Source: Dudresnaya verticillata (lineage: Eukaryota). Taken from it: DNA of 64,000 nucleotides. Below, one piece after another: positions 5,931 to 54,284 of this stretch (position 1 is its first letter; each line of letters opens with the position of its first letter). The notes under the pieces were generated by a model, which saw only the letters and a list, made by a program, of their open reading frames with translations, made no database searches and was not told where the DNA came from. Made by a program: the position numbers and the translations under genes. Where the stretch lies: contig OZ374562.1 in assembly GCA_977862235.1 (NCBI GenBank), positions 930,001 through 994,000 of the forward strand, written 5' to 3'.

Positions 5931-5948
5931 GCACCGTTATCACTAGAC

Positions 5949-20654: not shown

Positions 20655-20890
20655 CCGGGAGACTGTCTTTGGGGTTCTTCGTGTCTTACATTATTCTCCC
20701 AGGGACAGTTGTCTTTCAGCTGTAAGACAAAATGTCGTTGATGTTCTTCGTGTCTTACATTCATTCTCCCCGGGAGAGTTGTCTTTCAGCTGTAAGACAA
20801 AATGTCTTTGGGGTACTTCTTGCCTTACAATGTTCTCCACGGGACAGCTGTAAGACAAAATGTCTTTGGGGTAATTCGTGCCTTACATTG
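20655..20890. repeat. Tandem repeat, 3-4 units of ~60-70 bp
   Basis: CAGCTGTAAGACAAAATGTC occurs three times; TCGTG(T/C)CTTACATT repeated. Confidence 0.85.
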
Positions 20891-25740: not shown

Positions 25741-26249
25741 TCATGCTATCCTGGGCGACTTACCTGATACCTCTGTAGGGTTCTCGCACATCGGGTTTAA
25801 CCAATGAAATGGATTCTCAACTCACCTCCGCAGCTTTCCAACGTCTAACCATTTCGGAAACAGGCCATTTCTATCGATAAGGTCACCCTCAAGACATCCC
25901 CAAAACGGTACAAAAACGGCCACAAATTTATGTTACGCTACTGGTGCCGGCTTGACAAGACACGACCGCCCGGAGCTGGGGGTGCAGACTTCGTGCACTT
26001 CGCGGACTTCAAAAGATCTAGTGTGAAACGTCACTCAGAGATTTCTTGCCGCGCGATCACAACGCCACGCGACGGCGTGATCTCATGAAATCAAACGAAA
26101 CGACACCATGGCCGCCCCTCGTTACGTTTTTATATATTTCACGCTGTTATTGTACAGTATTATTGTACTCTCGCAGTAACCAAGTCAAAGGAGAACCACA
26201 CAGGGAGTTACAACACAAGACTCAAGCTTTTTACTGGACACTCTTCAGA

Positions 26250-28121: not shown

Positions 28122-28236
28122 TGTGGTATAGACGCTGTGCGCAAAACGGCTCCGTGGTCTACGTGAAAATAATCGAGAAATACGAATTTCGAAGTGACTC
28201 CGTGAATGCGCACGCCACGATGGCATTCGCATTACA
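28122..28236 (+). repeat. Solo LTR of family L2, 5' piece
   Basis: Reverse complement of the ~12430-12529 end and the ~12283-12306 repeat unit of the L2 LTR; preceded by TSD GATGC (28117-28121). Confidence 0.92.
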
Positions 28237-29559: not shown

Positions 29560-31705
29560 TGTCTGCGTCATGGTTTACGCGGGTGAATCATCTCTCTCCG
29601 CAGTCAACTGGAATCACTATAGTTGTGTGACAGAGCACGAAGACTGTGTCCCAATTCACAACAAGCGAACAGGGTTCAGGACAACATTACACATACAGTA
29701 AGACTCTACCCTCACTGGAGCTTCTCCAGAGCGATAGGAACCTAACGCGATACATCACATCTTCAATACGTTGACGGTGGTAGAACGATATGTCCGCCCG
29801 CTAATTGCTTTCTCAGCTCAGTCCACGATTCCGGAATATCAATCTGTGTTGTCCAACTATCTGGTGAACCCGAAGCCGCGCCGATCAGTTGACGGAGATG
29901 TCGTACATAGCCTGGTGCAGTATATTACCTCACTACTAATGCTGTGAACAGCGATGATATAATCATTTCACCAGAGGCGTAGCGCTGCCTCTCATGAGAT
30001 GACTATGCATAGTATTCATTTCGTACGTGTTCCTGGTCATGGTGCTAAAGCCGCTCTTCGAAGCCACATGCGAAGAAGCCACTTCTAGATTGATTAGAGG
30101 ACTTTCTCCGTCGATGCTGATAATTAAATGGCCCCTTGAAGCCGACGGGAGTTTTTTCACGTTTGTGTAGTTTAACGTATTCCGCTTCGAGCCACGAGAT
30201 GAAATTCATAGCGATTCAATCTCTACTCCACACTCTCTGCCTTCAAACCTTTACGCTTCATGACACGCGCTGTTGATGTAGAAAGAGTTCGGGCAATAGC
30301 GGGTTTACCAGCTGACTTCGGGCGCTGGAAAGCCTGCGCACCGTCTGTTTGGTTCGCATACTTGCCAACCAAACAGACGATATACATATCAACAGAATCT
30401 GCAAATATGTCTTCGTTACCCATCACATGCACGAGTGTTCTTTCATGTCTTTCCAAGCCACCTTCAGAAGGTTGTGGCGAGTCGAGGTCTATTTGAGAAG
30501 TATAAATCTGTTTGCCTCTGCTCTCGGTCTTCAATATGTGGCTAGTACTGCCGGAATGTCAGCTTGTGATATTTCATCCTGAACTCTTTCACGTATGCTG
30601 CGTCCTTCTTTCATGAACTGTTTCGCGTTTTCAACGAACCTCTTAATGACGCTGTGACCGTGGTACAATAACGCCGTACTTAACATGTTTGCTTATAGTG
30701 TTGTTTCCACGTTGAACAGAGTCCAGTCCTTGTCCGTGCTCCTTCTCACAGCAAGGAGCACGGGGCCATAAGCTTGAACACTGTCGCTATTCTTCCAAAC
30801 CGAATTGCGTCAAACTCTTAGCTGCCAACAGTCCCGTTTCTAACTCTTGCATGCAAAGACTATCTCTTTTCGACCCTTGTCATGCCCTTCGGGGTAGACC
30901 GGCTGGAAGCCAGCATTGCTACGTTGCACACTGTTCCTGTCTAGGGAGTTGGCTGCTCCCCCATATTTATCTTCTCGGTTTTAGATATTGTGCGGCCTGT
31001 CATTGAGAACGTTTGATTCGACAGGTCCCATGCTGTGGCCAGCACCTAATACAGGAGATCTGGCACCCTCAGAAGGACCGTGGGCATGCTGCCCATCATC
31101 TTCTGCTTGCGGTCGTGAATACTGATTTCCTGGGACGACTGTCGGCCTCTAGACGCTGTGGAATACCAATAGAAGATCTCTAGTAAGGCAGCATAGAGCC
31201 AATCCCATTCATCTACTCTTCACCGGAAAGGGTCTTGAGATGGTCCATAGCAGTGCCAAACTGGAAGGAAGACTCACTCATGTAAGTTGTTCAAATTGTA
31301 TTCCGGGACAGTCCCTGAATAGTTTCTGACGGTCAAAGCCGCCTTCAGAGTATCTGAGTCTTCTTTGTAGGGTCCCGGCGGTGTGTATTTGCCAGTATGA
31401 ATACCGCATTTGCTGCACTAACGTGCGCCCGGCTTAAGCCGGGACCGAATTCGGGCATCCATTTCTGAGGCAGAGCCGTTCAGGTAGATCAGATGATGAT
31501 GAAAATAGGGATTGTGCCCTATAAACTTCAGCCAGTCCTCATCAATCCAATTCGGGTTAGAACTCAGAACGATCGCTTTAGTGTTCAGGTTTGATGAGCA
31601 TGATTCTGCAAGGAACTCCTTCACAAATATCTGTAGCAACTCCCGCTTCACTCTTCCCTGACTACAACATGCCCTGTTACTGCCTAGTTTGCAGACATAT
31701 TTCAA
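29560..31705 (-). pseudogene. Heavily decayed unknown cargo gene(s)
   Basis: Series of minus-strand protein-like fragments (31418-31705, ~30530-30800, 30223-30534, 29963-30160) with many stops. Confidence 0.3.
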
Positions 31706-31873
31706 CTGTCACTGCGTGTTGTAGCAGGCGTGATCCAAATGTCTTTGCCCCGACCGGTTCATATGAGCTTGGTCGTGCATATTTGCGTGATCTCGTTCTG
31801 AAAATATCAGAACCTACTGGAATCAGACTGGCAACTCAGGTGGTTCCATGTCACTTTCCGATATCTCCTAGAC

Positions 31874-34800
31874 GTGCCACCAGTGCCGGCACCTGTCTTC
31901 GCCTCCTCAGCAGTAATTACCAGTTGTGTCATCAGCTGGAAGGAGATCTCCGCGACGCGGAGACGAAACGGTCGGCAAGCTGGACCAGAAATGTCGACAT
32001 CTTCAACTGCAGTGCGTGAAGATAATGACGGCAAGGAAACTGTTACTTCCCCTACTCGAAGGCGTGTTCAGTTGCTCGAAAAAGGGCTGATAGTCGGCAC
32101 AGCTGAGCCGCTCGTCCCGCCAGAGCCTAGTGGAGCGGACAGTACAGGATGCTATTGCACTAGACTACATGGGCAATATCTGCACGAAGTCGAGGAGGAA
32201 GGGCAAACATTGGCGGTCATTTACAAAGTCAAGATAGAGGAAAAGTTTTCTTCGAAGCCATACCGTTACACCTACAAGGGCGTAGAAGATCCACCTGCTA
32301 CTCTTCGAGGTCTTGAGGTTGGAATGCATGTTTAGGACGTGTCGCAGATGCGCAACAAACCCGTTGGCGGCCGCTCCAATAGTAAACCTCACACACCAAC
32401 CCCCGCGACACGTCGAAACAGGCGTAAACAGGCCGTGAAAACACCACCCAAGGCTGGGAGAGGAGGAAAGCGACTCACTGTGGATTCCCCGCAAACAGCA
32501 CCGTCGCCAGCATTAACAGCGTCACATCTGCAGTACACACCTCGATCCAGACCTGCATGGCGACCTCGGCCACAGGTTTTAAACCTGGCAGATGGACCTA
32601 CTCCGCAAGAAGAAGAATCTAGTGACGAGGCATATGTACCGGGGAGTGAGGCGGACGATAGCGATACGCTTGAAAAGGCGGAGGAGGGGGCTGAAACAGA
32701 AGGACTAGTGGAACCAAACGCAATGTCCAGCCCTCCTGCGGAGACAAATGCTGCTGCAAGCCCAGGGCCGGAAGAGGAGGAAATGTACATGGAATAACAA
32801 AACACTCGGCAGAAGCGACGCTACGTCTCTCACAACAGGCCGAGAGGTAACCCCACTGCACCGTTGATGGCCAGCAAGCGCCGGAAACTGCTCGAAGACC
32901 GTGAGAGCACAAACATCTCATCGTGGGTATGCTGTCAGTCCAAACAATGCTTTGGAACAATCGAAAGCACATATGTGAAGGAGGAAGCAAGGCGTACAAT
33001 TGCAATGAATGGGGCAGCTCGGTGGGCATATCTACGAAGCCTGTTGGAACGCAACTCGAATATGTACTTCTTCAACGCCAGGCCGGTGTGTTACACATTT
33101 CTGGAACGGGCATTTGGATTTTCGAGGGACTTACAGTCGTCGACGAAAGGGACAAGACATGCCCGAAGGCGAACTGGTCCCGGAAAGAGTTCGCGAGATG
33201 CTTCAACTGACTCTCTTGAACTTATTGTGAGTTTCTTGGAAAGGGTAGTGGAAGCCACATCTGACGCAATGCCAGACAAAGATGAGCTCCATCTGCCCTT
33301 CTTTCAAAAGCAGGCGGTCTACGACGTCTTTTTACGTAACCTTGCCGAATTGTACCGAGGAAAGACGCCGCCCTCTCAGAGTTACTTTTACACTGTTTGG
33401 ACTACACATTGCGCAAGGATCAAAGTGCGCAAAACCCACCGATTCGCGAAGTGTGCCGAGTGCAAGACTGTGAGGGACCAACTTGCCCGCATGACGTCAG
33501 GGGGTGCAGACCAGACGGCGACGAAGGGATTGAGACAGCGCCGCAGGCGGGATATAGAGATGGTAAGGCAGGAAATAATCGAGTACCGGAAGAAATGAGA
33601 CATGGCAAACCTCTCGCCGACAAGGTATTGCTCAATGATTATCGATGGTGCAGATCAATCGGCGTATGGTCTGCCGCACTTCCATGTTCGATCGAAAGCC
33701 ACAACGGGTCATGCGCTGGCAGCAAAGTTAATAGGAGTACTGGACCACAGTGCTGCAGATCGATTGTCGTTATTAACAATGACTGCAGAGTTCGAATCCG
33801 GTGCAGACCATATTGTTGAGGCGTTGCACCGCGTGTTAGCAACCAAATATGATAGAGGGGAGGTTCGGGGCACTCTCTTTCTGCAAGGAGACAACTGTAC
33901 ACGTGAAAACAAGAACACGTTCCTACTCGTGTACTTGGAGTCGCTCGTGTCGTGGGGGGTATTCACTGAAGTGCATATGTCTTTCTTGCCAATCGGGCAC
34001 ACACATGCCGACATCGACCAAACTTTTAGTTGCACCTCCAGGAGGCTTCGCGTCCACGACGCGGTGACTATGCAGGACTTGATGGAGGAACTACGCCAAT
34101 CGTACACACCCGCGCCTATAGTGACGCGCATGCGACACATCGTGAACTGGTCCGGAATCTGCAAACAGGAAAAGTGTATTGGGGGGTTGAGCCTTTCTCC
34201 CACTTTCGCTACTTCAAATTGTCCAGATCGGAACTGAACTCCGGCTCTACTGCAGCTTATTATAAGAAGAAGAGTGAGGTACGATTGGGTTGCAAGTATT
34301 CGTGGGAGGCGTTGAAAACAAAGGGACCTCAACAAGGATTCTTGCTATTCCCACCCGAATTGGGAAAGACACCTGCCACTGCGATAATCTCCCCTCCAGA
34401 TAAGGAAGAAGTAAGCAAGCGCTTACGCTCAGAGGAGCTGCGAATCCATGACTCCGCGAAGCTAAAGGACTTACAAAAGTTGCGCGATGAGGTCTTCCGC
34501 GATCGCGAGGAGCCTCTGCATTGGGACCTGACAAAGGTATTCGAGAAGAAGGGGGTATATATAAAGTCGGAGCAAGTTTTCGAAAGCGATGGTGAACTGG
34601 GGGAGGATGCAGATAGAGACGCTGAGGAGCAGGATGACGCTGAGCACGAGACTCAGCGTGCTGACTTGACGTATGGTGTCAACCTTTTCGTGGTGCTGAA
34701 CATTAAGGACAATAATGTGCCTTTCTGCATCGGACAGGTACAGGGCTGGGAGAAGGACAGAGCGGGTGTCGTTTGCACCCTGTCAATCAGGTGGTATGAG

Positions 34801-34998
34801 GTTGGTTCAGGACAGGACGCGTGGGACGGTAAATATCGCCCTTCTGTCTGCGCCAGAACCAAGAAGGCATGGACTGACGATGTTGATGCCGCGTCTGTCC
34901 TCGTTGAGTTTGAGAAGCTGTCTAATAATGCCTGCCCCAAGCCGTTAAGAAGAAGATACGAGACTCCTTACAGAAATCGTAGCACGATAGTCCATTAA
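31874..34998 (+). pseudogene. Sola-like (DUF7869-type) DDD transposase with extra N- and C-terminal domains
   Basis: 31874-34237 is one frame with three internal stops, then a frameshift to 34030-34998; KCAECK, IIDGADQ, LQGDNCTRENKN, FLPIGHTHADIDQTFS. Confidence 0.75.
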
Positions 34999-37112: not shown

Positions 37113-37459
37113 GGCCGGATAGGTTTCTGCGAATGCGAGCCGCCAGGACCTATCCGGCAATATTGATATTAGTTTTTAGGTTTTCTCGACCCGGCGACGC
37201 AAAAACCTTTCTAATAGGTATTCTGGTTGCGTGCTTACAAATACCTACAAAGGTATTTCTGAAGCGCCGACAGCAAAACTTATTGCAATAGGTTTTGTGA
37301 AAGTGATTTGGAAAACACCTATATAGGTATTTCCAGATTCCGTGTAGAAATACCTATTAAACAGATATTCGATCTCTCGCGCCGTGAAAACCTATTTGTC
37401 AATATTGATATTAGTTTTTAGGTTTCTGCAAGGTCGTGCTGTGAAAACCTATCCGGGCT
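37113..37459. repeat. AT-rich MITE-like fold-back segment
   Basis: CCGGATAGGTTT at the left and AAACCTATCCGG at the right; AATATTGATATTAGTTTTTAGGTTT twice inside; no TSD seen. Confidence 0.6.
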
Positions 37460-38649: not shown

Positions 38650-39320
38650 CTACGATGATTCCAACTTGTTCAAATCCTATGCAAAGAACCCCACCAGCCC
38701 ACTCAGCGTCTCCGGCGCTTCCTCTTGGCCTGTGAAACTATACGGATACTTCCGGGACTCACATCCAGGTAATGCGCTGAATCCGTAAAGAGAGACGAGC
38801 TGTTCTCCTTCCCTCGCAACCTTCGACAACGACACTCCATGAAGAGTCTCAGTTATTTTGGAACTCTCAGCACTTCGTTGCAGATGCTGTTCCGACCTTG
38901 TCTCCGTCTTGAAGCAGGACTACCTTCGAAGCACCCCGCAGAGGATCAGATTCTGAGCCTTCCGGACTAGTTCGTTTCTGTTTGGCGGGTCGCTGGTCTG
39001 TTACAGTTGATGTTATAACATTCTCCTCATTATGTACTACTTTCCGTCTCTTCTCAGCGGAATCAGTATCGGTAGTCGTTTCGCGGTGTTGCCGTTTGAC
39101 GACAGTGAGTGTGGAAGAGCACTGATTTTCATTACACACATCGACTGCGATTTTCTTCAAACGATCATATGCCAGTCTGAATGTTGCGGGGTTCTGCTCG
39201 ATGCCCACAGTCGGACGCCCCGTTCTCAAACCTGTAATGCAAGTGGTCAGGGTACCTCCGTAGGCATCCAAAACGCGTCCACCATCGGGACAAAAAGTTG
39301 TCATGACCTCCATTTTTGCA
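38650..39320 (-). pseudogene. N4/N6 DNA methyltransferase-like SAM-binding half fused to a C-terminal domain shared with the 31874-32335 ORF
   Basis: FCPDGGRVLDAYGGTLTTCITGLRTGRPTVGIEQNPATFRLAYDRL fits the beta-class VLDPFxGSGTT..GR..IGIE..A..RL consensus; frameshift at ~38870. Confidence 0.7.
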
Positions 39321-39912
39321 GCGCAAGGGCAAGACGAAACCGAAGATAGCACAGGACTCGCTGACAACTCTCATCCAGGCCTGGATTAATACTGAGTTCG
39401 ATCCGTGCCGAGTTGCTTTGTACACCATTCTTGAGCGCTTCAACCTCTGTTGTCAAACTGGAATACCTGTCGCGAAGATTTTCCAGCTCTCCAATTGTCT
39501 TCGTATGTTGAACAGATTCGCGACCAGTCACTGGTATTGCCTGTTCCGTGTACACGTCTGTCTGATCTTCTCTGTCAGATATACGACCTCTTCGCGTAAA
39601 CCCATCAGACGGGCTCGTGTTTTTCCTCCACGACAGCAACAGGCTGTCGTTTGTTTCCCGATCTTCCTCCCAGACCCGAAGAAGCCTACCAGCCAGGAAC
39701 TCGACTTTTTCCACGGATGCCATATAGCCGTATTGGGCGTTTCCGGCATACTCTATTGTCGCGACAGCGATCACATCTCCTTCATCAATTTCATCAACGG
39801 CGAGTACCTCAGCATCCCACCACAGCTCATCCCCATTGTCCATCTCCCAGGCGACTTGCATCCATTCGTTCGCCAGCGGTAGTGCATTCCGCTCTCTGCA
39901 GGCGCGCCTCAT
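39301..39912 (-). CDS. Tudor/Agenet-like beta-barrel plus coiled coil, probably 3'-truncated
   Basis: WMQVAWEMDNGDELWWDAEVLAV..ATIEY; IGELENLRDRYSSLTTEVEALK. Confidence 0.5.
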   Translation of the reverse strand: MRRACRERNALPLANEWMQVAWEMDNGDELWWDAEVLAVDEIDEGDVIAVATIEYAGNAQYGYMASVEKVEFLAGRLLRVWEEDRETNDSLLLSWRKNTSPSDGFTRRGRISDREDQTDVYTEQAIPVTGRESVQHTKTIGELENLRDRYSSLTTEVEALKNGVQSNSARIELSINPGLDESCQRVLCYLRFRLALALQKWRS

Positions 39913-40751
39913 AATACCAACCGCAATTGTAATAACAATTGATTCATTCGGGAGCGGGAAAAGTTGGCTTCAGATCTCTGAAGGGAATTGCGAGAAAGCA
40001 ATCATTGCCATCATGCTCTGTCGAGTTCCGAATATGCGTATACGCCCGAACTTGCACGCTGTTTCAGGCACGATCAAAGAAATGCTTCACAGTACTCAAA
40101 TTTCATGGATTGCAGCAATATTTTCCCTCGCTGCACAAAATGCACCTGGACTGTCTTGCTGAGTGTGCTCAACGTCCATGGACGTACATCAGGTCCTCGA
40201 GGTTAACCTACTGGGAACGGCCGTTACTGTCTTCTACTCAAAACATCTCGAGTTATTGAAGACAATATGCGCGTCACCGGGAGGAAGACTTCCGAGAGAC
40301 GGCGTGAATTGCAAGCCAGTCCCTCCAAAACTCCCAGACAACGGAAGGGGTCTTCGAAGGGAAACGGCTTTGTTGGACCTCCTCGCGAACTTGCTGACAC
40401 TGTGGGAAAGAGGAACAAGTCCGGCTGGGCCTCAAAATTACAGGAATTGTAAATGCCTTCAACGGAACAGAACACACCGGGATCTGACATCATCACTCGA
40501 CGAAGTGATAGACATGGAAGAGAGCATGGTGCTGATCATAGCCCTAAGGGAAGTAAGCGGCCGCTTCTTCATACCCTTCCAGAGACGCAGCCACGACTGG
40601 GTGATGATATATATGACCCCACAACATCTCCGGAGTCACCTCCAATGAGGCGGAGAGCCACTCAAGCTGTAGGAGTTCTCCAGAACGAAGATAACCGAGG
40701 TAGTGATGCAGAGTACCATTCACCCGGGGCCCGGATATTTCCCTCGGTAAA

Positions 40752-42626
40752 ATGAGAAAGATAGCTCTAAAGGTTCCACGGTCTGTGCCCCTAGTACGCA
40801 TAAGTGACGGTGTGGGTGATGATGAAGAGATTGGCCGAAGAGAAGATGTGGATCCGAGGTACCCGACCCCGGGGTCGAAAGGATTACCTCTTGATAGCGG
40901 GGAAGACACTCCTTTGTACATCAGAGGTCGATCCATGTTTATTACTGCACCGAATACGATTAAGCCTGGCCCGGCGCGGATGTTCACTCAGTCTCTGGTT
41001 ATGAGAGACACAGCCGTGAATAACCTCATTGAGCAGATTGAGAGAAGCATCAAGCGTCATGTGGATGCGATTCAGGATGTCGTCTTAAAAACGTTTGCCG
41101 AGCTGGACAAGAATATGGCCGAGGTTCGAAGAGATGTGCAAGACATCCGGTCTGCGGCACAACTGAGGGGGTCCGGGCCCGGATCGTGGCCGGCAGGTGG
41201 CTCTAAGAAGACAGCTCGGGCCATTTTTGACGCCAAACTCGATAACTTCACACGTCATGCCAACTTGGTATTCAACCAAACAGTAATGTACAGAGTGTTC
41301 AGTACTTGCGTTTCCAACTGTGTCTCAAGTGCTGTTTCAAACAATGATGATACCTTGAGGGCGTCGGCCGACACTGTTTGTTCCATCCTATTTGCGAAAC
41401 AAGTTGATCAAGCCAAGAAGACATTCACGGAAGGCACCGGGAGAAGCATTGGTGCGTTTCGGTACTTGGTAGTAACGAATGCAGTATACAACGTTCAGCA
41501 GAACCGCTTCGGTCAGTTCAAGCCTCTACCTGAGATCGATGTGCCTGGAGGGCCTGGTGCCGGCCGGCCGGCCGGTCAAAGTCAGCCCTCGATATCCAAA
41601 TCCGGGGAGGCACCCGCTTCGCAGACGTCAGATATACAGGGCATACCCCCTGGAAACGGAGTAGCTGATGACACTATAGACCACCCCGACCGGCTCAAAC
41701 CGAAGATCATTGCTGAGGAGCATATCAAGAATGCCCGAATGTTATGCGAAATATCAAGTACGAAGACGAGCGATGTGGACGGCCGTCCAACGGTACACTT
41801 AGGCGCAGAACGCGAGGTGCAAGAACGCGCTAAGACAATTGTCGTGAAGGATATGCCGACAAGTCAAGATGTTGCATACTTCGGTGCCTCGAAGATATAC
41901 AAGATTGTTACAGAATGGCTCCGCGAAAGCAGGCAGAAGGCGAAGAACGCTTTGGCAGAAGACCTGACGTACCTTATGGTCAACTGGTCCCAGTTGAACT
42001 GTTCAGGTGTGGAGCAGACCACTGTGCGGGTGCGGTGGTCGACAACAGAAGCAAGTGATGGCACATCTCTGTTAAAAGACGACTTGAACCTTGTAGAAAT
42101 CCCGGAAACAACGCGAAACCCAAAGCGCACTATTTATATTGATGTCGCCAACACAAAGTTGTACAATGGGATACTGAAAGATAGGGTTGATATGATGGTA
42201 AGCGTGTGCCATGACGTCTTCGTGCTTCCATGCGCTGCCGACGGGCGCCAGAGCTCCGATAGGAAATTACGGAAGAGGCAGGGTGGCGAGAAGAAACCGC
42301 TTAAGAGAGTTGTCAACTTAGTTGAGGTGGCAATGAAGTTCTGTGTGGCGTTTACCCAAAGCACATCAAAGGAGTACTCTCCTGAGATTTGCCTTGGGGC
42401 ACATACAAAAGTGCTGCACACAGTGATGTCCATCGCTCATGTTCTGCGCGTTTTGGTGAAGAAGTTTGTCGCAGTGCACTTCGACGGGAGGGGGCGTTTC
42501 CGCGGCCGCGGAATAACGACGAAAGGAATAAAGGTCGGAGCATTGGCACTGGACAAATTATTTGCAGGAAACTCTAATATGAAAAGCGTTTTGACCAGTC
42601 GAGCGTTGCGAATGACCGAGAAGTAA
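40752..42626 (+). CDS. 624-aa unknown protein with N-terminal coiled coil; probably extends both ways past lesions
   Basis: Long uninterrupted ORF inside the CACTA element; heptads LIEQIERSI..LDKNMAEVRRDVQDI. Confidence 0.75.
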   Translation: MRKIALKVPRSVPLVRISDGVGDDEEIGRREDVDPRYPTPGSKGLPLDSGEDTPLYIRGRSMFITAPNTIKPGPARMFTQSLVMRDTAVNNLIEQIERSIKRHVDAIQDVVLKTFAELDKNMAEVRRDVQDIRSAAQLRGSGPGSWPAGGSKKTARAIFDAKLDNFTRHANLVFNQTVMYRVFSTCVSNCVSSAVSNNDDTLRASADTVCSILFAKQVDQAKKTFTEGTGRSIGAFRYLVVTNAVYNVQQNRFGQFKPLPEIDVPGGPGAGRPAGQSQPSISKSGEAPASQTSDIQGIPPGNGVADDTIDHPDRLKPKIIAEEHIKNARMLCEISSTKTSDVDGRPTVHLGAEREVQERAKTIVVKDMPTSQDVAYFGASKIYKIVTEWLRESRQKAKNALAEDLTYLMVNWSQLNCSGVEQTTVRVRWSTTEASDGTSLLKDDLNLVEIPETTRNPKRTIYIDVANTKLYNGILKDRVDMMVSVCHDVFVLPCAADGRQSSDRKLRKRQGGEKKPLKRVVNLVEVAMKFCVAFTQSTSKEYSPEICLGAHTKVLHTVMSIAHVLRVLVKKFVAVHFDGRGRFRGRGITTKGIKVGALALDKLFAGNSNMKSVLTSRALRMTEK

Positions 42627-42799: not shown

Positions 42800-43810
42800 A
42801 GCCTAGGCCTAGGTAATCTGGGCCTACTGTTGTACAACGTGCACAACAGTTAGTTGTATCTGTTAATGAAACGTGAGGATATGTGTTAAACCGCTCCTCA
42901 CCGCCAGGTAGTAGTCACTACTGAGCTATCAAGAGTGGGCCCACTCCTTTCACAATGCATGCCGTCGTGCACAAAATGAAAGCAGGAAGGAGCTAGCTCC
43001 GCAGCAGCTGCTTCAGCCTAGGCTATAGCCTGCAACACCTGGTTGTAACCAAGCAATGTGTTAGACAGCAACTAGCTGCTGTTAGCTAGAAATTGCTTCA
43101 GTTGATAACGTTACAAGTACTTCAGGTATCAGTTCGAAGCCTAGGCTGGATGGGAACTGAAGGACCATGCCCACGCCTTCAACACCGCATGCCGTCGTGC
43201 ACAAAGTGAAAGCAGCAAGCAGCTGCTTTAACATAGGCTATAGCCTGGTTTCAATCTTCAGCCGCAGCTATTAGAGCACGGAGCGGAGCACAATTGAGCC
43301 ATTATGTTGCAAAGGTCTAGCTCCTCGCAGCTTGCAAGCTTAAGCTTTTGTACCACAATTGTACCAGGTAGAAAGAGTGGGCAAACTCCTTCATTATGCC
43401 GTCGTGCGCAACATGAAAGCAGCTGCTGGCAAGCAACTGCTTTAGCCTAGGCTACAGCCTGGTTTCAATGTTCAGTCGCAGTTATATAGCTGCATAGCTC
43501 TCATATGAGAGCACAGCGCGGAGCACAATTGAGCTGTTATGTTGTAAAGGTCTAGCTCCTCGCAGCTTGCAAGCTTAAGCTTTTATACCACAATCGTACC
43601 ATGGTAGAAAGAGTGGACCCACTCCTTCATTATGCCGTCGTGCACAAAACAAAAGCAGCTGCTAGCAAGCAACTGCTTTAGCATAGGCTATAGCCTGGTT
43701 GTAATCAAGCAATGTGAGCAATAAGCAGCAAGCAACTGCTTGACAATAGGCAACAGCCTGGTTGCAACCAAGAAACGTGTTTAACAGGAGCTAGCAGCTA
43801 GCTAGCAGGT
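42800..43810. repeat. Degenerate tandem array, about 4 units of ~200-240 bp
   Basis: ATGCCGTCGTGC(A/G)CAA at ~42959, 43188, 43396, 43632; repeated AGGCTA(T/C)AGCCTG; lies between convergent genes. Confidence 0.85.
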
Positions 43811-43860: not shown

Positions 43861-46800
43861 TCAGTAGCGGCCCGGGCCCGGGTTGTGACTCGGACCAGCT
43901 CCTTTATCGCAGCCTCGCGGTAGGAACGGCATGTAAGGGTGAGCCTCGTCTCTCGGGTGAGCATCGCCCCTCGGGTGTGCCTCGCCTCTGGGGTGTCGCT
44001 CGCAGTCGATACCCGGCTCATGCGCACGTTCAACTTCCGTGTAACGGTCATCACGATGATAGGCGTATCCTGAGCGGTCCGCATTATGGCCGTTATGGTA
44101 CGGCGTTTCGCACTCGCGGCGGCCGCCGCCACCCCTTGTGGTACCATAGCTATTCATTGGAGGCCCGGGCCTCTGATGGCCATCGGTCATATGATCATAA
44201 GGGCGGCCACGAAACCTTCCAGCGTTATTGACTTTGTAGTTCCCGCGGTCGTATCCGTTATACTTGTCGCGGTCGTACCCACGATAGTTGCCACGGTCGT
44301 GCAAGAGGGAATGCCCTTGGTAGTTGCCACGGTCGGGCCCTTGATAGTTGCCACGGTCGTACCCTTCATAGGTGCGACGGGCACGAACCTCATCATGGAC
44401 ATGTCTAGGGTGCATGAACGCATTACGCCCACGTTGAGCAGGCCCACGTGGAGCACACGGGTCGCGATACCCCGGGCCCTGAGCAGGAGGCCTTGCGGCA
44501 GGCCGGCAGGAGGGCTCTCCATCACCCACTCTCCCAACGAACTGTGCTAAGTCATCTCTCTCAGCACGTAGCGCTTCCATGGAGAAAATAATCTCATTAA
44601 GATTCCGCGTCGTGTGCGTTACCGTCTCAAAAAGCTTTCTCGCCAGCCTCTCAACAGTAATGAAGTCATGCTGTATCCAACCGTGCAGCCTGATGTGTGT
44701 TTCCAGGCCTGGAATCTCGGCCAAGTCTCTGAGGCCGATGCGCAGTGGGAGCGGGGTGGAGGCGCGCATTTCCTGCCGACGGAATTGACGCACGCTGAGC
44801 TTAATATGACGGAACTTAGAGTCAAGCATGGCCTTCCTCCCGGCCGGGGGTTCCCAGCAATGTTGCCGGTTCCAATAACACTGTTAATGAAGAAGCTCCG
44901 TGTCAGACCTTCAAACGGTAACATCAACTCGTTCCGCTTCGACACGTGCATCGCATTCGAAGCTAGCATCCGCGAAATGACAACATCACAGTCCTTTCTG
45001 GTGCATGGAAAACCCTTCCCATTCATGCTAACAATCTGAACATCTCCCACAACCTGCTTGATCGTGTGGATGGTTTCCCTTTCCAAGATGAACGCGCGGC
45101 CGCCGCGAATCGCCTCATTATGCCAGGTAGCGGCCAGGAGACCAAGAAACGCAACCTTTAGGATCTCGTTCAAGCGCTCACGTCTATCCATGTTACTGCC
45201 GTCAACTATTTCCTGGTGATAGTACCACACACAAGGGGGGAGGGGGACTGGAAGCGTTGCTGGTACCTGGAGGTTGGATAACCACACAGGCGTCGCCGGG
45301 AAGACCTTCCTCATCTCCTGAAGTGTGTAGCGCTTTGTATCATACGCGTCAAAAGGTACGAACAGACCACAGGATTCTCGGGCCCAAGCTTCATAGATAA
45401 ACGCGGGTCTGTACCTGAATTCATTCCACCAACGGCCTAGAATGGGGTCACTGAAGAGAGGGTGGTCTTTACACAGCGCGGCAGCAGCTCGTGCAAGTAC
45501 ACGTCCATCTCATCATTGTAGTAACACTCTACCTCACCCCGAGCGAATGTTCTGTCGACCTGCATCGTGTTCGGAAGTCCATACCATGGTCTCTCGGCAG
45601 TCATGAGAGACCATGCATCATTCACTGATTGCTGATCCTGCTCGTAGAGGTTCAGATACCGCTTCGCGTATGCTTTCATGTCGGTCAGCTCCCGCTTCAG
45701 AAAATGTGTGAACGAAATGACGTGGAGCACTCCAGCACTCCACGAATGCCTTGCGCTCAACCGGGGCTTATCAAGCGCCATCGCATCAAGATTGTCCCTC
45801 CATTCGGGAGGAGCCCCTTCCCATCCTCCACGCGGCTGCATGCGTGGCAGCTTCGCCCACGCGGAATTGAAGGTTGGAACAACAGCAACCTGAGCATCAT
45901 GCGCGGCTGCGCCCTGACCATGGGGACCATCCATTGCGCGTGACGATCCCATTCGCATTTCTCCTGGAGTGCGTTGAATAACGCGCATCGACTCCGCGAA
46001 AGTCAGGTACGGAACAGGCGTTGCCTGCATCTGCAATGGCATTCCTGGCCTATCATCTCGAACCGCAGCAGAAGCTTGAGCAGCGCGACCATCGGCCGCT
46101 GGCCCAGACCTTGGCGCCTCACCAGGCGCGCCTCGTCGCGACGACGTGGCTTGACTTGTGCCCTTCGTGGGAGACCTTTTCCTCTTTCCCTGCGAATCTG
46201 TGTCCTGGGCGGCCGCCCTTTTCCGCTTTCCCAACGATGGAAGTTCTTCCAGGTCTGGTAGTTCCTCGGCGGTATTGTAGGGACCATAATTCTTCCGCAG
46301 CTTGGTCAACTGAGCTTCATTATCGACATCAATGACATCACTGAGCTCTCCATCTTCATTGGCCCGTGATTCCTCACCCTGGGTACTCTTCTGTGCTGGC
46401 ACCCCGGCCGGGGTCTTGCTCGCAGGCTGGACGTCTGCAGCCTTGTTAGCAACCTCAGACGCAGAGCGCGGCCCCGCGGGGGTGTGAAATCCAATTGTAC
46501 CCCCATCTGTCAAACGCCTGACAAAGTCCACGTTTTCAGGACTCGTGCCATTATCCAGCAACTTCTTCTTGAAAGCTTCTTTGCCCGCGCTGGAAGTGGC
46601 CACTTCCAGCTCCACCTCATGTGTTGCACCGCGGTCCCCGCCGGGGCCGGCCGGGGCTGGAGCCTCGCTCGCCACTGGGAGCTGCCTATCATGGAGCTCG
46701 TTCTGTGTGGCCATGGGGATGTCCGTTGCTTCTGCGGGCTGCTGAAGAACGACCTTCTTCGTCCTGGGTGATTCTCTACGCGTTGTCTGATTGCCTTCAT

Positions 46801-47640
46801 CAGAGGCTGCGGCTGCATCCTCGCCAGTAGACAAAGCGCGTTTGGGGGTTGGGGTCTTGTTCTTGACCACCGTACTCTTCGAGGCCGCCTGCTGCTCTGC
46901 GTCTGCTTCGGTCGGCGCAGCTTGACTACGAATACCGGTAACAGGGCCGGTAGCAGGGCCCTGCTTGGGAGGTACCGTAACAGCGGGGGCAGACCCTGAA
47001 GATCTAGTCTTCGGCTTCGAACGGGTAGGCTTCGATATCGAGGACCTCTTGGAAACCTTATTCTTGCCCAACGCTCTAGTGGCAGACTTAGTAGCGGCGG
47101 CCGCCGCCCTCGTCTTCGAACGCACCGGAGTCTTCACTGTCTTGTCTGTAACTCCGGATTTTCCCGGGCGTTTCCGCGTCGCCGAGCGCATCGCTCCAGG
47201 TTTTGGCGCCGCGGGAGCCGAGCTGGCGCAGAGGTCGAGCGTTTGGGAGCTGGCCGGTTCTTCTCCACATCTTCGGATGGAGCGGTGCGCGCGGGCGCAG
47301 GCGCGGACGCAGGCATGGGAGCGGGCGCGGGAGCGGGCGCAGGCGCGGGTGCAGGCGTGGGAGTGGGCGTGGGCGCGGGCGCGGGTGCAGGCCCAGGCCC
47401 GGGCGCGGGTGCAGGCGCAGGCGCGCCCGGAGCAAGCGCGGGTGCGAGCTCGGGTGCAGGCGCGGGCGCGGGAGAAGACACAGGAGCTGGAGCCAGCGCG
47501 GGCGCGGGTATAGGTGAGGCCGCGGGCGCGGGTACAGGTGAGGCCGCGGGCGCGGGTACAGGTGAGGCCGCGGGCGCGGCCGCGATGCCGTTCTTAGATG
47601 ACGTGCCCATGGGCACTTTGGAGTTGTCGGTACCCATCAC
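43861..47640 (-). pseudogene. Large cargo ORF (~1250 codons, frameshifted): Pro-Ala repeat, K/S/T-rich disordered region, core homologous to the Gypsy antisense ORFs, coiled coil, DRGNY and HPRG repeats
   Basis: Overlapping pieces 47134-47994, 45437-47191, 44619-45440 and 43861-44829. Confidence 0.75.
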
Positions 47641-48507
47641 GAAAACCTGGAGGTGGGAGGGTGTAGTCCGGGTTGTGGTTGCCGGAGAGAGGGAGCGGTG
47701 GGACTCATTTTGCTCTGATATGACGTATTTTGCAGGCTTGATGACGACCGAAAATCGCCGCTCAATGCCGTGCCAAATCATCGATCTGGGCTGGTATGAC
47801 AGATCTTGGGCCCTGCATGCAGGCTGCAGGCCCGGCCGGGCCCAGATTCCCTTTTTCTGGTAATAGTTCTGGAACAAACGGGCGGCAATGCGGCTCACAA
47901 CAGAGCCGTGATCGCGGCATGCGCCGCTGTGCACCAGGCAGGCCTGCCTGCAGGCGTACCGGCACGACCAATCACATCTACCCTCTTGTCCCATGGCACA
48001 CGTAAGGCGTGGCTGTACTCAAGTGAAAAACGTCATTGGCTCCAAATGGCCGAATGAGGCCCGCAATACGGGCAAACTATGCGCAGTTTCCAGTACTGGA
48101 CCGCCCAAATGCAAGTATTTGGATTTCAAACAGGCGGTTGTGCTTGTTTCACTGCGGCCGCAGTTTTGGCTCCCGAAAATCTGCTACGCTGCTACCGCTT
48201 TCCGCGTCGCTACGCTCTTCTCGCACACCGAACTCACTCCATGGTGAACAGTCTTCACCTCATCATCCGGTATCGCCATTAACGCTTCGTCCTGAGAGTG
48301 CAGCGCAGTAGTGCTGGCAGACTTGCAACCCAGAACGCGCTCCGTGATTCACCTTCTTCAAATCATCAACAGGGCCCGAGATTTGCTTTCCGCCGTGCTG
48401 CTCAAAACCTTGGAACGCGCCTCAGGGTACGTCCTGGCGAATAAGTATCCTATTTGGTCGCCATCCCCACGCGCGGCCGCGTCGCGGTATACGATTGAGT
48501 TTCGTTA

Positions 48508-51500
48508 ATGGATCAGCCGCATTGGAAAGCACAATATGGGCGTCGCAGAAGTCGCCAACATTCTCGGGTCGACTCTGTGGGAATGCGTGCCAATCTAACC
48601 CACCTATTCCAGTTCGAGAGCTCCAACGACGCATCGGCAATTGCAATTGATGAAGGACCAGCCGGTCCCAGCCCAAGCCGTTTACCCGGCTTCGAACCAG
48701 GGTCTCCTACCGTTCAGATTGCGAATGAAGACTCCGCATGCGCGCAAGACACCGCGTTCGTGAGTCCTTACCAGGAAAGCCTGGGCCCAGGCGAAGGGCC
48801 ATTCTCCACTGCGGTACAGCATAGACCTCTTCGAGCTTCGGACCCTCCCGGGAACCACGTGGCGGGAGAAAGGGGTGATGACGACTTCGGCATAGCCATA
48901 AAAGGGCCCCGCAGCGAAAGAAACGCATTTCTCCGAGACGAGGTGCTCCCGGGAGGCTCCTGTGAGGGGCCCCTTCCTGGAGCCGGGCAAGACAGTCCAG
49001 AATTCGATGAAGATGATGTGCCCCCCGAGTTGTTTGATTCTTTCGATGAGATCATCGACCTGGAAAATGGTTAATCTATGAGGAGGTGGGAGCAAGATAG
49101 GTTATGTGACCCTGTTGCACGAATCGAAGGGCCGCAGCCCTTCGCTTGCTTTGATTCGCGCAACAGGATGGACGCGTCGGGCCGGACTTCCGTTGGTTCT
49201 GCGGTGCCGGCGCCATTTTCTCGGCAGGATCTCGTGAAGTTTCTGCAGAAAAGAAGAACTCTGCTGAACTGGGAGGAGCTGTTCGCTCTGATTTGTGTTT
49301 GTGGAAGCGTCCGAATGACTGTGCGTCAGTATGAAACTTTGAAGAGACTGGGCAACTGGCTGGAGCGGCTTCAGAGTCGCGAGGCCTCGCTACCTGTGTA
49401 TTCTACCATCCAACGAACGATATTCCCGTTTTCAATCAAACATTGCTTCGTTGCGAGTTACAATGTTTCCCTTGCTGTTACGAAGCAAGATCTGAAGAAG
49501 AGGGGAAGTGGGATCTCTTTCACTGCCGTTGAAGAAGAGTATGGGCACATGAGAGGGCGGAATAAGAGAGTGAGAGCGGCCGCTCCCTGACCTCCTCAAC
49601 ACGCTGCAAGCCTTGAAGCAGACGAGACGGCACGACGATTTGCTCCTGTCAAGATCATATTCCCCTCGGAGTGGGCCAAGATGGATATAGCAACTTACCC
49701 TGTATTCAAAGATTTGTTTCCTAATTTCGACACCGGCAACCCCGGGGGCCCGGCGTCTGACTGCAGCTACGCCCAGAGTCCTGCTGACCCGAATCCGTCG
49801 AGATAACAAGAGTTGTGAGGCACCGCCGAAATGCTTTAAACGCTGCTGAGATGTTGTTCGTTTCAAAAGGGGAGAACATCGTTAGAGCGAACATAGGAAT
49901 AACGGTGGATGTTCATGTTCAGCGAGTTCCGAGGCGTGTTGTAACAAATCCGCGTTCAGCACGGTCCTGTGCCTTGAGGGCAAACCCCACCGGGGCCCCG
50001 GGTGTCATCTTGACTGGACAAATTGCTGCCTGCTGGTGTGTCGCTTCCAGAAGCTGCCAAACTGAAAGCTCAAAGCGAGCAGTTGAGGAGGAAAAAGGTG
50101 TTGAGAAGGACATCATCAACCTGTTAAGCGCTGGTACGAAAGTTGATTGTATCCACGGAGGCTGTAACGAAATCGCGGACGCTAACCAGACGATGACTAC
50201 AGACTTGCAAAGCACGGTCGTTCTTCCAGGGGACTTTTGCTCGCTTTTCAGTATTCCCGAGCGACGCCCAGAAGTCTTCGTGGTCTGTATGCTGGTCAGC
50301 CGGTTCTGGCGATATTGGGATGGGGAGCCTTCGCAGCTCTTAATATGGATAGATATGGACAACAGTTGGAGTTCAGGCGTTGATTTCTGCGGGGAGGGGT
50401 CGCTATTTCAAGTCCTGAAGGAAAGGACGCCAGTTAAGGAAGTTCACCTTGGCGTGTGTCGAGATGGAAGGGAGCGAGCACTCCGAAATGCCATTGATGA
50501 AGAAGACATGCCCATGGAATTCCTTTCTCGGCCGAGAAATATGGGGTTCCTTCATTCTGGAGAGAGATATGTCGAATATCGCCTTTTGTTGTACTGTGAC
50601 GACTTTCAACCCTGTACTTCTTTGCTCCCGCAAGGCTCTGCGGGTGGGTGCTACCTTCTCCCACTCGGTATTTCACCGCAAAGCCGTGCGAAGAGATCAG
50701 CTGTACGGCTTTTGGGACTGACGCCGCCCGGTGTGAGCACAAATGCGGTTCTGTGGGACATCGTACCAGACCTCGTGAAGGGATGTACTGAAGGCTTCAA
50801 AGGGAAGAGCCCAAACGGGGAGCATGTCAGGATCTTCCTTGACCCGGTCGGGTTCATTGCGGACTTCCCGGCGGCCGCCAAGTCTACAGATGCTGTTGGA
50901 CACACTGGCAAGGCCTCTTGTACCCACTGCAACTTTCTATGCGTATTCAGTGATGTTTCAGGTAAGTTCGGCTATACTGTGCGACTGCACTCCCAACATT
51001 ATTCAAGCGTTCGATGCAAAGAACGGCATAAGGCTTTGCGGGAGAGTGGAATTTGCGAGCACCAAGCACCATGTATGGGAATGTCGAAGGAGTATGACGA
51101 CAGTGGCATAAAATCGCTATTGTACTTGTCTGAGGAGTTGGAGAGAGTCCGGCCGGACGTGTCTCTTAACGCCAATGGAGAACGTGTCGTGCCGTGCACC
51201 TTCGACCCGTACCTATCACAGGTCGTTGCCCCAGATCACTTACTCACCGGCTTGATCAAGAATACTCTTACAACCTGCTTCCTGGTTTTATCTCCAAAGG
51301 GGAAAACCATTGCTGATATCATAATTTTCCAGGGACTTCGCGACAACGGGATGCTCACCCAGAATTCCGTCTTCGAGAGTATGTTACACTCCATGCCGCT
51401 TTCCGAACTGTACTGCGTTCTCACTGTGTCTATTTCTGCCTTTCGTATAACCATGGGAAAGGAGAGCGATGCTTACCGCTTGGCCAAGTGCCTGCAGGAA

Positions 51501-52771
51501 CTCATTGCAGGAACATTCTGGTGGCCTCTTGCACATGTGGACGGAGAAAAAGCTGTGGAGACGTTTCGAAAGTCGGGTGGCCACCCGTATCTGCGCCGCC
51601 TGCAGAATCTTGCGACGAAATATGTCAAGTTGTGCAACGAGTACATTGAGGCAAACGATCTTGGCGGCGATTTGGACAAGCCCAATCTACATCGCCTCAT
51701 GGAACTGTACTATCACACTATCCCAATGTTTGGGCATGCAAGACATGTCATGGAACTGGTATTCGAGTGTGCGCACTCACCTCTGAAACGATGTGTGACA
51801 AGAAGGAATCAGCACAATGCGCATATATCCGCCGTGGAGCATGTCCTCGGAAACGACTGGCAGGGCAGGCTTGCCCTCCTTAGACACACTTCGGAGCATG
51901 GAAAAAATCAAGAACGCATTATGGCGCGCAGAGGTCTCAGAAGGCTACTTCTCGGGCCCGAGATCTGCTCCGTTAAGGAAGAGGACCCCGAAGTCAGTAC
52001 CGTTATTCAGGACTTGGACGACAAGATAGAAGGGATGTTCGTGGAGCCGCTAATGGAAGAACTAAGGGCAGATGGAAAGGTGAATCCTTCCTGGTCGATA
52101 TCGGAAGCGGAGTGGACAGGGACGACAGTTGCCAAAGAGCTGAAAGGCGTAGAGCGAGCTACAACAGCTGGACATACGTGGGAAGATTTGCTTGAAGAGG
52201 CTGTGTCGGCAATCGAGGAGTACTACCTAGACTTCGACAGGCGAAATGGAGCTGCCGCCCCAGCCTTCATCATGCGCGGAGCGAAGCGAGTTAGAACGAC
52301 GACGGTTGCGGGCCCGCATCGGGCCTACAGGCACGATACAGTTGACCATGGGTCGGTATTAAGATGCCTTGTTTCGCCCGGGGATGAAAGCAGAAACGTC
52401 ATTGTACCAGAAAGTGATGGAAGTGGAAATGTGAAGCTGTTCGCAGTGTATGCTGCCTTCAGTTTGGAGGGAATGGAAGAAATGTGTCAGCTCGCGGGAC
52501 TTGGGCAATTGTTCTTCAGTGCTTGAAGACGGATGCGAGGCTGCAGGTGAGCGCGGCCGCGCTATGTGCGGATATTCAGGTGGTGAAATTGACAAGGGGC
52601 GTGAGGAGAGTCGCTGTGTACCACGTCTGCGTTTTTCAAGAGGACGGGTTGAATCTGGAATGCGAAGTCGATGAGGAACAAAGAACTATTAGGCACACGG
52701 AGTCAGTGTTGGATGGAGGGTTGTACTTTTTTCAGACGAAGGAGCAAGGGTACCCTCCGCGAATGGCGTAG
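48508..52771 (+). pseudogene. CACTA/CMC (Plavaka-like) DDE transposase with stops and frameshifts
   Basis: LLYCDDF, GSAGGCYLLPLG, IADFPAAAK, GHTGKASCTHC, APDHLLTG, KPNLHRL, FGHARHVMELVFECAH in the CMC order; 903-aa open core. Confidence 0.88.
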
Positions 52772-52889
52772 GCACAATCGCAAGCGTGCCAGCGCATGCT
52801 CCGGCCGGAAGCGTGGGCACCTGATAGTGCTATTGTCAAGGGCGCAGAAGGAGATTGACGCGTCGTGCGCGGCCGCGCGCGACGCGCCC

Positions 52890-52940
52890 GGGCGTGCGGC
52901 CGAACGCCGGCCGGCGCGCCCGGCGTTCGGCCGCACGCCC
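52890..52940. other. Perfect 21-bp GC-rich hairpin
   Basis: GGGCGTGCGGCCGAACGCCGG / CCGGCGTTCGGCCGCACGCCC with a 9-nt loop. Confidence 0.9.
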
Positions 52941-53401
52941 CGGCGAGTGCCGTTATAAGACCTACGAAACGGTCACTTGTTACAGTTGTGTAGGTTCATA
53001 GTCATGAAGTAAAGCATGTTTTCTGATGTGTACGAAGTGGCTGTGTCATTAAGTAATGTAGGCCAATGCATGCGTATAGATTCGATGGGCGCAAAATGTA
53101 AAGTGGAAATTGCGACGATACATGAAATATAATACTTGATGAAGTATAAAATCGCAGTAAGGCCGCAGGTGTTACAAAGCGCATGCGTAAATCTGCGGCG
53201 GTAATGAATCTGACTCAAAATTGTGACGCGCCAGAAATGAATTCCAATTATCGGGTATCATAATTTCTAATGCATTCCAAAATCACTTTGCAATTTCTGG
53301 CGCATGTTTTCAGACCCTGGCGCATCAAAATCCCATGGGCTAAATCCATTATTTTGCGATTTATTCTAATATGATCAAGCCGAATTCGCGTTCGTAGTGC
53401 A

Positions 53402-53995
53402 GTGCGCACACGATACGAAATCGCTGACACCTTCGTGGTTTTCCCGTTGTTTCCTGCTCGAACGGCTCCGAGGCCCACGACGCGCGTGCACCTCCATATG
53501 CATTGTTGGTGCACTCCGTAACCGTCACCATACGTGAGGCGACCGTTTGTTGGCACCGAGGCCGTTACGAATCATTCGAGTACCAACTGTCCCTCGTTTT
53601 GACGTGTATTCGTGCTCACGTAGTAGAAATTGGCTAGGCGTGGAACGACCTCCAAGGGTTTGCGGTAAGCGACTAGCGCCCGGACCTCGGAGTCTTCGGT
53701 AAACGCCTGTTTCTTCGAGTTCCGTGGCTTCGTGTTCGTGACCGCGGATACGGTCGAGCCTCGCTTTCGATGGCCCCGCGCACCTGGAGTCATCCCTGGT
53801 GATCGATCGCTTGAGGTATCCCTTCCGCGCACGAATAGGTTGACACCATGGTCCTTCGTGTTTGTCGCTCCGCTCTACCACGCTACCACCAATTTGCCTT
53901 TCTCCGTTAGGCTACAAGGCCACACGTTAGGCTCCGAGGCCATGCCCTGCAGTGTGAGACTTCCGCGTCTCTCGATGGACATTAATTATACCACA
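53402..53995 (+). repeat. Solo LTR of family L2, 3' piece
   Basis: Colinear reverse complement of 11688-12282; ends TATACCACA, followed by TSD GATGC (53996-54000). Confidence 0.92.
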
Positions 53996-54284
53996 GATGC
54001 AGGGTACGTAGTGTATAGGTAGTGTCGCTCTCGTACCATGTACGAAAGTTAGGCCAGCTGTCCGTTACGGAGTTCATGGGTTTTCAGTACACCGCACTTC
54101 TATTTAGGTTGTGAGGCCCCATCCTCCCTCTGCGTTTCTGCCGCTCTACCATTGGTACCCTATACTGGCTCTGTGGCTATGGCCCTGCGTCACTCCTATA
54201 GTATGCAAGAGACCCCAAGGCACTTTAGCACAGGGTGGAACTCCTCTCGCACCCGGAGTATCCCCGGTGCCGCTTGGTTCGCAA

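Follow-up and report, generated by a model that had tools for sequence, protein, structure and literature searches.

Remnants of one uncatalogued protein family in a giant CACTA transposon and two Gypsy retrotransposons of Dudresnaya verticillata

Overview of the locus

The window analysed here (64,000 bp of contig OZ374562.1, positions 930,001 to 994,000) consists of nested, degraded mobile elements of eukaryotic type. A Pfam scan of 99 ORFs identified two Gypsy pol regions (belonging to the elements designated G1 and G2) and a PIF1 helicase; there was also a match to DUF7869 and a weak one to a methylase. Three levels of nesting, with every duplication intact, are found between 28122 and 53995: a CACTA element is inserted in a solo long terminal repeat (LTR), which is itself inserted in the antisense ORF of G2. 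This arrangement gives the order of insertion, with G2 the oldest element and the CACTA element the youngest. The solo LTR (+ strand) is split into two pieces (28122-28236 and 53400-53995) and has TGTGGTA...TACCACA ends and a 5-bp duplication, GATGC. Excision of the CACTA element in silico produces a continuous repeat that is 87% identical to a second LTR at 11688-12529 (- strand). The latter has a polypurine tract on its right, which marks it as the 3' LTR of an element on the minus strand that has lost its body; it lies 8 bp beyond the inferred G1 3' LTR.

Several smaller features surround these elements. The PIF1 helicase pieces (13701-15537, - strand; Pfam) are likely to represent a Helitron. 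Tandem arrays with 31-, 59- and 70-bp units (19838-20909) lie upstream of G2, as does a LINE-like reverse transcriptase (RT) fragment (21213-21578, - strand). A MITE-like element of approximately 500 bp with 200-bp inverted arms (24653-25149) is inserted in the G2 integrase.

The CACTA element and its cargo

The giant CACTA/EnSpm-type DNA transposon is 25.2 kb in length (28237-53399) and is delimited by matching ends (CACTACGAAGGCGA and, as the reverse complement, CACTACGAACGCGA) and a 2-bp duplication. Its terminal inverted repeats (TIRs), CACTACGAA at 28237 and the reverse complement ending at 53399, have the form 5'-CAC..GTG-3', and the target site duplication (TSD) is CA on both sides. Both features agree with the definition of the CMCT clade given in PMC12730594 (5'-CAC..GTG-3' TIRs and a 2-5-bp TSD), and the termini are unlike those reported there for the fungal PlavakaA (TGT) and PlavakaB (CATCA). 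A CMCT/EnSpm-type transposase is encoded at 48499-52770 (+ strand), with a 912-codon open stretch at 49788-52526. It contains the motifs LYCDDF (50589), IADFP (50856), CTHC (50919), KPNLHRLME (51678) and FECAH (51762), the labels of which are in part presumed. CTHC is labelled as the C(2)C motif after PMC12730594; the His motif KPNLHRLME has no second His at the canonical spacing. The transposase has no Pfam match at E≤5, and no window ORF matches the Pfam Plavaka model. A GC-rich hairpin (52882-52948) directly follows the transposase. Mid-element, at 37287-37358, lies an AT-rich palindrome flanked by repeats.

Broken ORFs at 31582-34998 (+ strand), inside the CACTA element, have a strong match to DUF7869 (Pfam E 1.7e-42), and no TIR/TSD pair of a nested element was found around them; they may be cargo or an insertion. 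The 639-codon ORF at 40707-42626 (+ strand) is intact; it has no Pfam match and is outside the gene family described below. This second long cargo ORF converges on the cargo gene C across a palindrome array. A C-terminal fragment of an N6-adenine methyltransferase is found at 38867-39370 (- strand; PF01555, E 0.00096, under the curated cut-off), and is abutted by an ORF with a coiled coil (39301-39969, - strand). This ORF also carries what we take to be a Tudor/chromo-barrel-like segment, without Pfam support. The element resembles the Plavaka PAG1-3 elements (10.1101/2025.02.11.637652) as described there, which are also giant and EnSpm-type, with several cargo genes and an N6-methylase. The methylase fragment may be PAG2-like cargo, and together with the abutting ORF looks like a deletion junction in such cargo; ORF 40707-42626 is another candidate for PAG1 or PAG3.

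Gene C (43861-47637, - strand) is approximately 1260 codons long, lies head-to-head with the transposase, and consists of four frame pieces separated by three frame switches. Read through with X, it is 31% identical over 457 aa to a natural protein, P0026 (E 2e-76), which identifies the pieces as a single gene. By composition, the product has a low-complexity N-terminal arm (with PA repeats, two KRKR clusters and DVIDVD), a folded core and an RG/P-rich tail; the natural relative P0166 (1180 aa) shares this long-arm/core/tail layout. Motifs in gene C include RWWNEFRYRP (45434-45405), YEAWARESCGLFVP (45395-45354), LQVP..EIVDG (45272-45198) and EAIRG (45116-45102). As the ends of the element match and are flanked by the 2-bp duplication, gene C is placed in the CACTA element by physical boundaries and not just by its neighbourhood.

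The Gypsy elements and their antisense ORFs

G1 has a degraded gag-pol region at 600-6467 (+ strand) encoding an RT, RNase H, integrase and weak chromodomain (Pfam: RVT_1, 5.5e-24; rve, 1.8e-10; Chromo, 0.003, under the cut-off). The Pfam order of the pol domains is RT - RNase H - integrase, as in Ty3/Gypsy elements. An antisense ORF of approximately 750 codons (8012-10293, - strand) lies between pol and the 3' LTR. Its core is at approximately 9316-10002 and its tail ends in VIDLLSD; it is damaged by an in-frame stop (9256-9258) and a frame switch near 8.5-8.6 kb. The ORF has a GC3 of 0.67 and one stop, versus 18-32 in the other five frames, and contains the motifs FERRNRHRTGCFVP (9735-9694) and VWSICRHE (9519-9496). 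Seven copies of TGGATAGAT, out of eight in the window, are found at 6762-6923 (+ strand) between pol and the 3' end of this ORF. A polypurine tract (10847-10856) and TG..CA-type 3' LTR (10857-11679; TGTGG...CCACA), both on the + strand, are likely those of G1; the end point of this LTR is estimated from the one copy in the window, and the 5' end of G1 is outside it. The junction GAGGGGGCCG/TGTGG at the LTR is the same as that at the LTR at 12529.

The degraded G2 pol (22848-25751, + strand) has the same Ty3/Gypsy order, with RNase H and integrase recognized by Pfam and RT by its similarity to G1. The two pol regions are 44-58% identical in RT and integrase, and the antisense ORFs are at the same place. 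The G2 antisense ORF remnant (27313-28121, - strand) has two in-frame stops and contains VWSIAKTE (27771-27748); it ends at 28121 because the solo LTR inserted there, cutting off the 5' part. Element ends for G2 (paired LTRs, TSD) were not found in the window.

Evidence for a common protein family

The initial annotation, from an alignment made by eye, proposed that gene C and the two antisense ORFs share an uncharacterized domain, and all of the motifs that it quoted are present at the respective ORFs. Direct pairwise scores are weak: C and G1 are 27% identical over 66 ungapped aa (BLASTP, E 2e-4; Smith-Waterman shuffle P 4e-4 to 1.4e-3), G1 and G2 are borderline (shuffle P 0.03-0.07), and C and G2 are not significantly similar in pairwise comparison or shuffles. 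Homology was instead established through relatives. A profile of the three cores was searched against 1.84 billion proteins (cut-off E≤1e-3) and retrieved 131 relatives, a set for which a mixed profile favours cross-similar sequences. To guard against circularity, relatives were assigned by single-sequence search against one window ORF alone. In this way 68 of the 131 were assigned (16 C-type, 47 G1-side and 5 G2-type), with the other 63 significant to none.

Member-only profiles were then built from the relatives of each ORF, with the window ORFs left out. HHalign probabilities between these profiles are 98.5% for C-G1 (E 2.8e-15, 206 columns), 99.5% for G2-G1 (E 1.9e-22) and 95.0% for C-G2 (E 3.6e-8), while the maxima among 11 reversed or shuffled controls per pair are 0.27, 1.84 and 0.66%, respectively. 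With the window ORFs and some weaker members included, the values are 99.4% (C-G1), 99.7% (G2-G1) and 98.1% (C-G2). At library-scale E, the G1-member profile detects 6 of the 16 C members, the best at E 2e-9, and 3 of the 5 G2 members, the best at 2e-17; among the window ORFs it detects G2 at 8e-4 and C at 0.04. The C-member profile detects 3 of the 47 G1-side members, and the G2-member profile detects 18 of these and none of the 16 C members. The C-G2 link is mainly transitive through the G1 side. On the same scale, the window C and G1 ORFs miss cross-profile significance (E 0.04 and 0.3). Of 426 reversed or shuffled decoys run against the member-only profiles, none passed E 1e-3 (best, 15.4 bits).

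Weak or absent pairwise scores are what would be expected if the similarity were due to chance or an alignment artefact. This reading, to which we assign a negligible probability, is effectively refuted by the member-only matches of 95-99.5% against controls under 2%, and by six-frame scans of the window: the only match above 5 bits other than the C, G1 and G2 loci is to the G2 profile at 54000-54146, a sequence which partly built that profile. Gene C and the G1 and G2 antisense ORFs are thus almost certainly broken copies of one protein family.

The domain placed by the initial annotation at 44900-45700 is indeed present but wider: a six-frame scan with the C profile covers a C-type folded region of 44668-45967 (- strand) in three frames, within which the core common to C, G1 and G2 is at about 44950-45560 (HHalign). 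Profile alignments reproduce the register of the ERR/GxFVP, P..PP..Y, VWSI..E and A.RG blocks, but the first block (RWWNEFRY against RWDETSNFKY) does not align cleanly. Of the disordered or coiled-coil flanks that had been described, those of C and G1 are low-complexity, whereas the G2 tail is coiled-coil-like by eye but not significantly so. The assignment of the family to both classes of element was borne out: gene C is inside CACTA ends with a TSD (class II), and the antisense ORFs follow pol in two class I elements, in G1 also preceding the polypurine tract and 3' LTR.

Core, predicted fold and phylogeny

The shared core of approximately 200-230 aa begins with a D-x4-R-x3-E-x2-Y helix, followed by E-x3-R, Y-x3-P-x-W, P-x4-Y and W-x5-E, and ends in an A-x2-G-R-hydrophobic strand. 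Despite 15-30% identity, 18 positions are common to all three groups at ≥60%. Residues R103, E107, Y110, E188, R192, Y218, Y244, W260 and E266 (G1 numbering) are near-invariant across clades, with E266 present in 100, 100 and 91% of the three groups. AF2 models of the G1 protein (pLDDT 82.6, pTM 0.85) and of P0026 (about 85-95 in most blocks of the core) are mostly helical, with few strands and one long central helix. Structure searches with the core gave no clear match, the family has no match among PDB sequences, and Pfam searches of all 131 relatives (117 + 14) gave nothing meaningful (one member has a sub-threshold ADIP match). DUF4007 (PF13182) was considered and rejected: the Atlas score for a C fragment is 0.95, but recognition is 1565, below 2300, no member has a Pfam match to it, and an intact relative has no usable ESM Atlas match. 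Among near-identical copies, variation in the core is not significantly lower than in the flanks (26/2405 versus 54/3913, p 0.35).

The near-invariant charged and aromatic residues in all clades would suit an enzyme with a fold not yet catalogued, acting on DNA, on RNA or on a protein of chromatin. Other red-algal Plavaka cargo is described as enzymatic (methylase, SET, 2OG; 10.1101/2025.02.11.637652). However, no metal, SAM or nucleotide-binding motif is recognizable, and paired R/E and W/P conservation is also expected from holding a loop-rich fold together; we consider an enzymatic function to be unlikely.

Core trees were constructed from the 113 of 134 rows with ≥150 aa of core, and from 35 chosen rows. 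Both are unrooted and contain four supported clades: C (100), G2 (96-98), G1 (95-97) and a fourth (98-99) that has no member in the window and accounts for 40 of the 113 rows (e.g. P0010, P0090 and P0125). The depth of these clades in the unrooted trees suggests that sharing of the family is old and is not the result of recent capture. C-type proteins form their own clade with a long stem (support 100), a distinct N-terminal extension and a layout of up to 1180 aa, and this clade is not nested in G1 or G2. Among 30 representatives looked up, the two named members are both from red algae: a Gracilaria changii ORF, from a transcript assembly, and Pyropia vietnamensis MMPV_008760. P0116 and P0168 correspond to MMPV_008760-008761, two near-identical proteins whose locus tags follow one another on a contig of 428 kb.

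These data bear on whether the family is confined to LTR retrotransposons, gene C then being a captured or nested remnant of a third such lineage that plays no lasting part in the CACTA element. The initial annotation had named such a nested remnant as the alternative identity of the region. It would fit with 115 of the 131 relatives being outside the significant C set, with the context of a C-type gene being seen in this window alone, and with gene capture by DNA transposons being common (PMC6431247). Against it, no direct or inverted repeats (LTR pair or duplication) bracket gene C, the G1 and G2 gag-pol sequences have no match in the CACTA interior, and the 1180-aa relative has the same layout. 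The separate clade, with its long stem, N-terminal extension and layout, points to long separate maintenance. The absence of flanking repeats and gag-pol traces together with this clade favours a stable cargo gene, and the remnant explanation appears to have only a slight chance of being correct. The family is probably a stable passenger gene of both element classes, each clade being assigned to its class from one window.

Possible function

An env-like role is excluded, as the ORFs are antisense and not membrane-anchored: 7 of the 131 relatives reach a hydropathy of 1.8 over 19 residues, and the median maximum is 1.18. A gene retained in a retrotransposon as well as in a cut-and-paste element is expected to act on something that the two share, such as the nucleus, host silencing or target chromatin, and a chromatin-level function would explain why elements of unrelated transposition chemistry both keep it. 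VANC proteins provide a precedent, with targets that form element-specific tandem repeats (PMC5735166), and the reported cargo of red-algal Plavaka elements includes methyltransferase, SET and 2OG genes and passes from one transposable element (TE) family to another (10.1101/2025.02.11.637652). From this precedent, the chromatin-type Plavaka cargo and the element-specific arrays described below, counter-silencing was ranked first, an enzyme second and targeting third.

A non-coding array of approximately 215-235-bp units rich in 10-16-bp palindromes is located at 42931-43780, just past the 3' end of gene C. In 9-mer counts of 125 sub-windows of 1.5 kb, a count of ≥6 is reached in 11, which fall at four sites. 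Two of these sites are the spacers beside the C and G1 genes; the G2 spacer has no array. Element-specific tandem motifs in the non-coding regions of the carrier, a feature of VANC-type systems, are present beside C and G1 and absent in the G2 spacer. The motif K[KR]x[KR] is found in 19 of 51 long non-C members (8.7 expected). A SUMO-type motif is present in 7 of 49 tails (0.9 expected), the pattern being narrow and chosen after the tails had been seen; a generic SIM rule gives 8 tails against 5.3 expected, which is reached in 44 of 300 shuffles, making the SUMO signal fragile.

Our preferred interpretation, which is tentative and falls a little short of an even chance, is that the three genes are broken copies of a factor that acts in the nucleus to protect the element encoding it, sustaining that element's transcription in the face of host silencing. 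Transcription of the gene would start at a promoter of its own and run divergently from the transposase in the CACTA element, and antisense to gag-pol in the Gypsy elements. The protein would enter the nucleus by means of its K/R clusters, and the core, with its conserved R/E/Y/W residues, would recognize element-specific non-coding motifs, candidates for which are the palindromic units beside C and the TGGATAGAT copies beside G1. The arms may recruit or block host chromatin factors, possibly via SUMO contacts. Several points weigh against this mechanism. No anti-silencing or DNA-binding family in Pfam resembles the core, whose median net charge of -3 (slightly acidic) is unlike that of a simple DNA binder. 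The lack of an array in the G2 spacer, the fragile SUMO signal and the non-significant comparison of core and flank variation count against it too. Furthermore, the array beside gene C lies next to ORF 40707-42626 as well and could belong to that ORF rather than to gene C, and tandem arrays also occur away from the C, G1 and G2 genes (19.8-20.9 kb).

The head-to-head position of gene C and the transposase would also suit a cofactor for integration or targeting, one that anchors the transposase or integrase complex on selected chromatin. Both classes finish with a DDE strand-transfer step, and the elements in the window nest into one another. Nesting is, however, common in repeat-rich regions; the G1 integrase already has a chromodomain-like end (a weak match), and one core would need two unrelated enzyme partners. 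We regard a targeting role as improbable. A factor with an effect on the whole cell, whether for selfish persistence (toxin-antidote or drive-like) or as a general suppressor of RNA silencing, would likewise be independent of transposition chemistry. The gene C tail is RG-rich, and RG-rich tails occur in RNA-binding proteins. Such a factor is very unlikely to be the answer here: the three elements have no partner gene in common, and element-specific arrays fit self-specific action better.

Relation to known systems and significance

Few accessory genes are known to be common to retrotransposons and DNA transposons, and those few, the plant mobile domain (PMD) and VANC-like genes among them, are central to evading silencing. 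PMD is also present in Mutator-like elements, and TRP28, named Transposase_28 in Pfam, is linked to DNA transposons. PMD (MAIN/MAIL1), a domain whose function is unknown, is associated with Ty3/Gypsy elements, and a role as a TE counter-silencing tool has been proposed for it (PMC8616336); it is described there as angiosperm-only, unlike the family here, and its Pfam model matches none of the 131 relatives or window ORFs. VANC, from the Mutator-like VANDAL elements, pairs a TE-encoded accessory protein with element-specific non-coding tandem motifs, as here; it is described as removing DNA methylation in Arabidopsis DNA transposons (PMC5735166), and this family has no Pfam or PDB sequence match to it. 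The link to PMD and VANC drawn in the initial annotation is an analogy, with no homology by Pfam. Retand TRP28 elements also combine an antisense ORF with tandem arrays between pol and the 3' LTR (PMC11963269). The function of TRP28 is given there as unknown, with DNA binding proposed; it is a different domain (no Pfam match), and Retand belongs to a non-chromovirus lineage of flowering plants, in contrast to the chromodomain-like G1 integrase end. The likeness to all three systems appears to be one of position and logic, with membership of none by Pfam. By this analogy, counter-silencing may be the job of the family, a proposal that we hold with less than even confidence.

Among red-algal elements, both the Plavaka PAG elements and the CACTA element here have an inverted-repeat array beside a cargo gene, and in Bostrychia such arrays are reported to accompany PAG3 (10.1101/2025.02.11.637652). 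PAG1, compared by its description in that source, has no identified domain, like gene C, and gene C may be this published domain-less gene. It lacks the PAG2 domains: PF01555 methylase and PF00856 SET are absent from the gene C pieces and the 131 relatives. PAG3 domains (ParB-like N-terminal, 2OG oxygenase) also have no Pfam match here, and the family models, mostly helical with few strands, are unlike a double-stranded beta-helix; the published HHpred calls are, however, weak (E 0.29 and 0.016) and would also be missed by Pfam. Plavaka cargo is described as mobile among TE families, and the part of the source dealing with carriers names Plavaka, Mutator, Zisupton, Fanzor-encoding and "various TE families", with Gypsy antisense ORFs not named there. 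Our literature search likewise found no description of the gene C family in Gypsy antisense ORFs. En/Spm elements of the red alga Chondrus crispus (16-20 kb, 4-5 ORFs) also have extra ORFs (PMC6431247), and gene C may be one of those of the large Chondrus families, deposited without a domain name.

The analysis supports a diverse, uncatalogued protein family carried by both class I and class II elements, to which a function is ascribed by inference. Its deep clades number at least four, it is absent from Pfam, and its core is predicted with confidence and has no clear structural match; candidate target motifs adjoin the C and G1 genes. Whereas VANC acts on DNA methylation, TEs of the red alga C. 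merolae are silenced by H3K27me3 (10.1101/2025.02.11.637652). A bolder proposal, which we consider unlikely, is that mobile elements of red seaweeds, whichever their class, encode an ancient anti-silencing protein that is structurally new and sequence-programmable, the clades of which have co-evolved with their own arrays and lift Polycomb-type silencing from their own family, as an independent red-algal counterpart of VANC. The family offers a way into the question of whether and how the genomes of red seaweeds silence the elements that have enlarged them; if it proves to be sequence-specific, it would also provide a new scaffold for targeted chromatin change.
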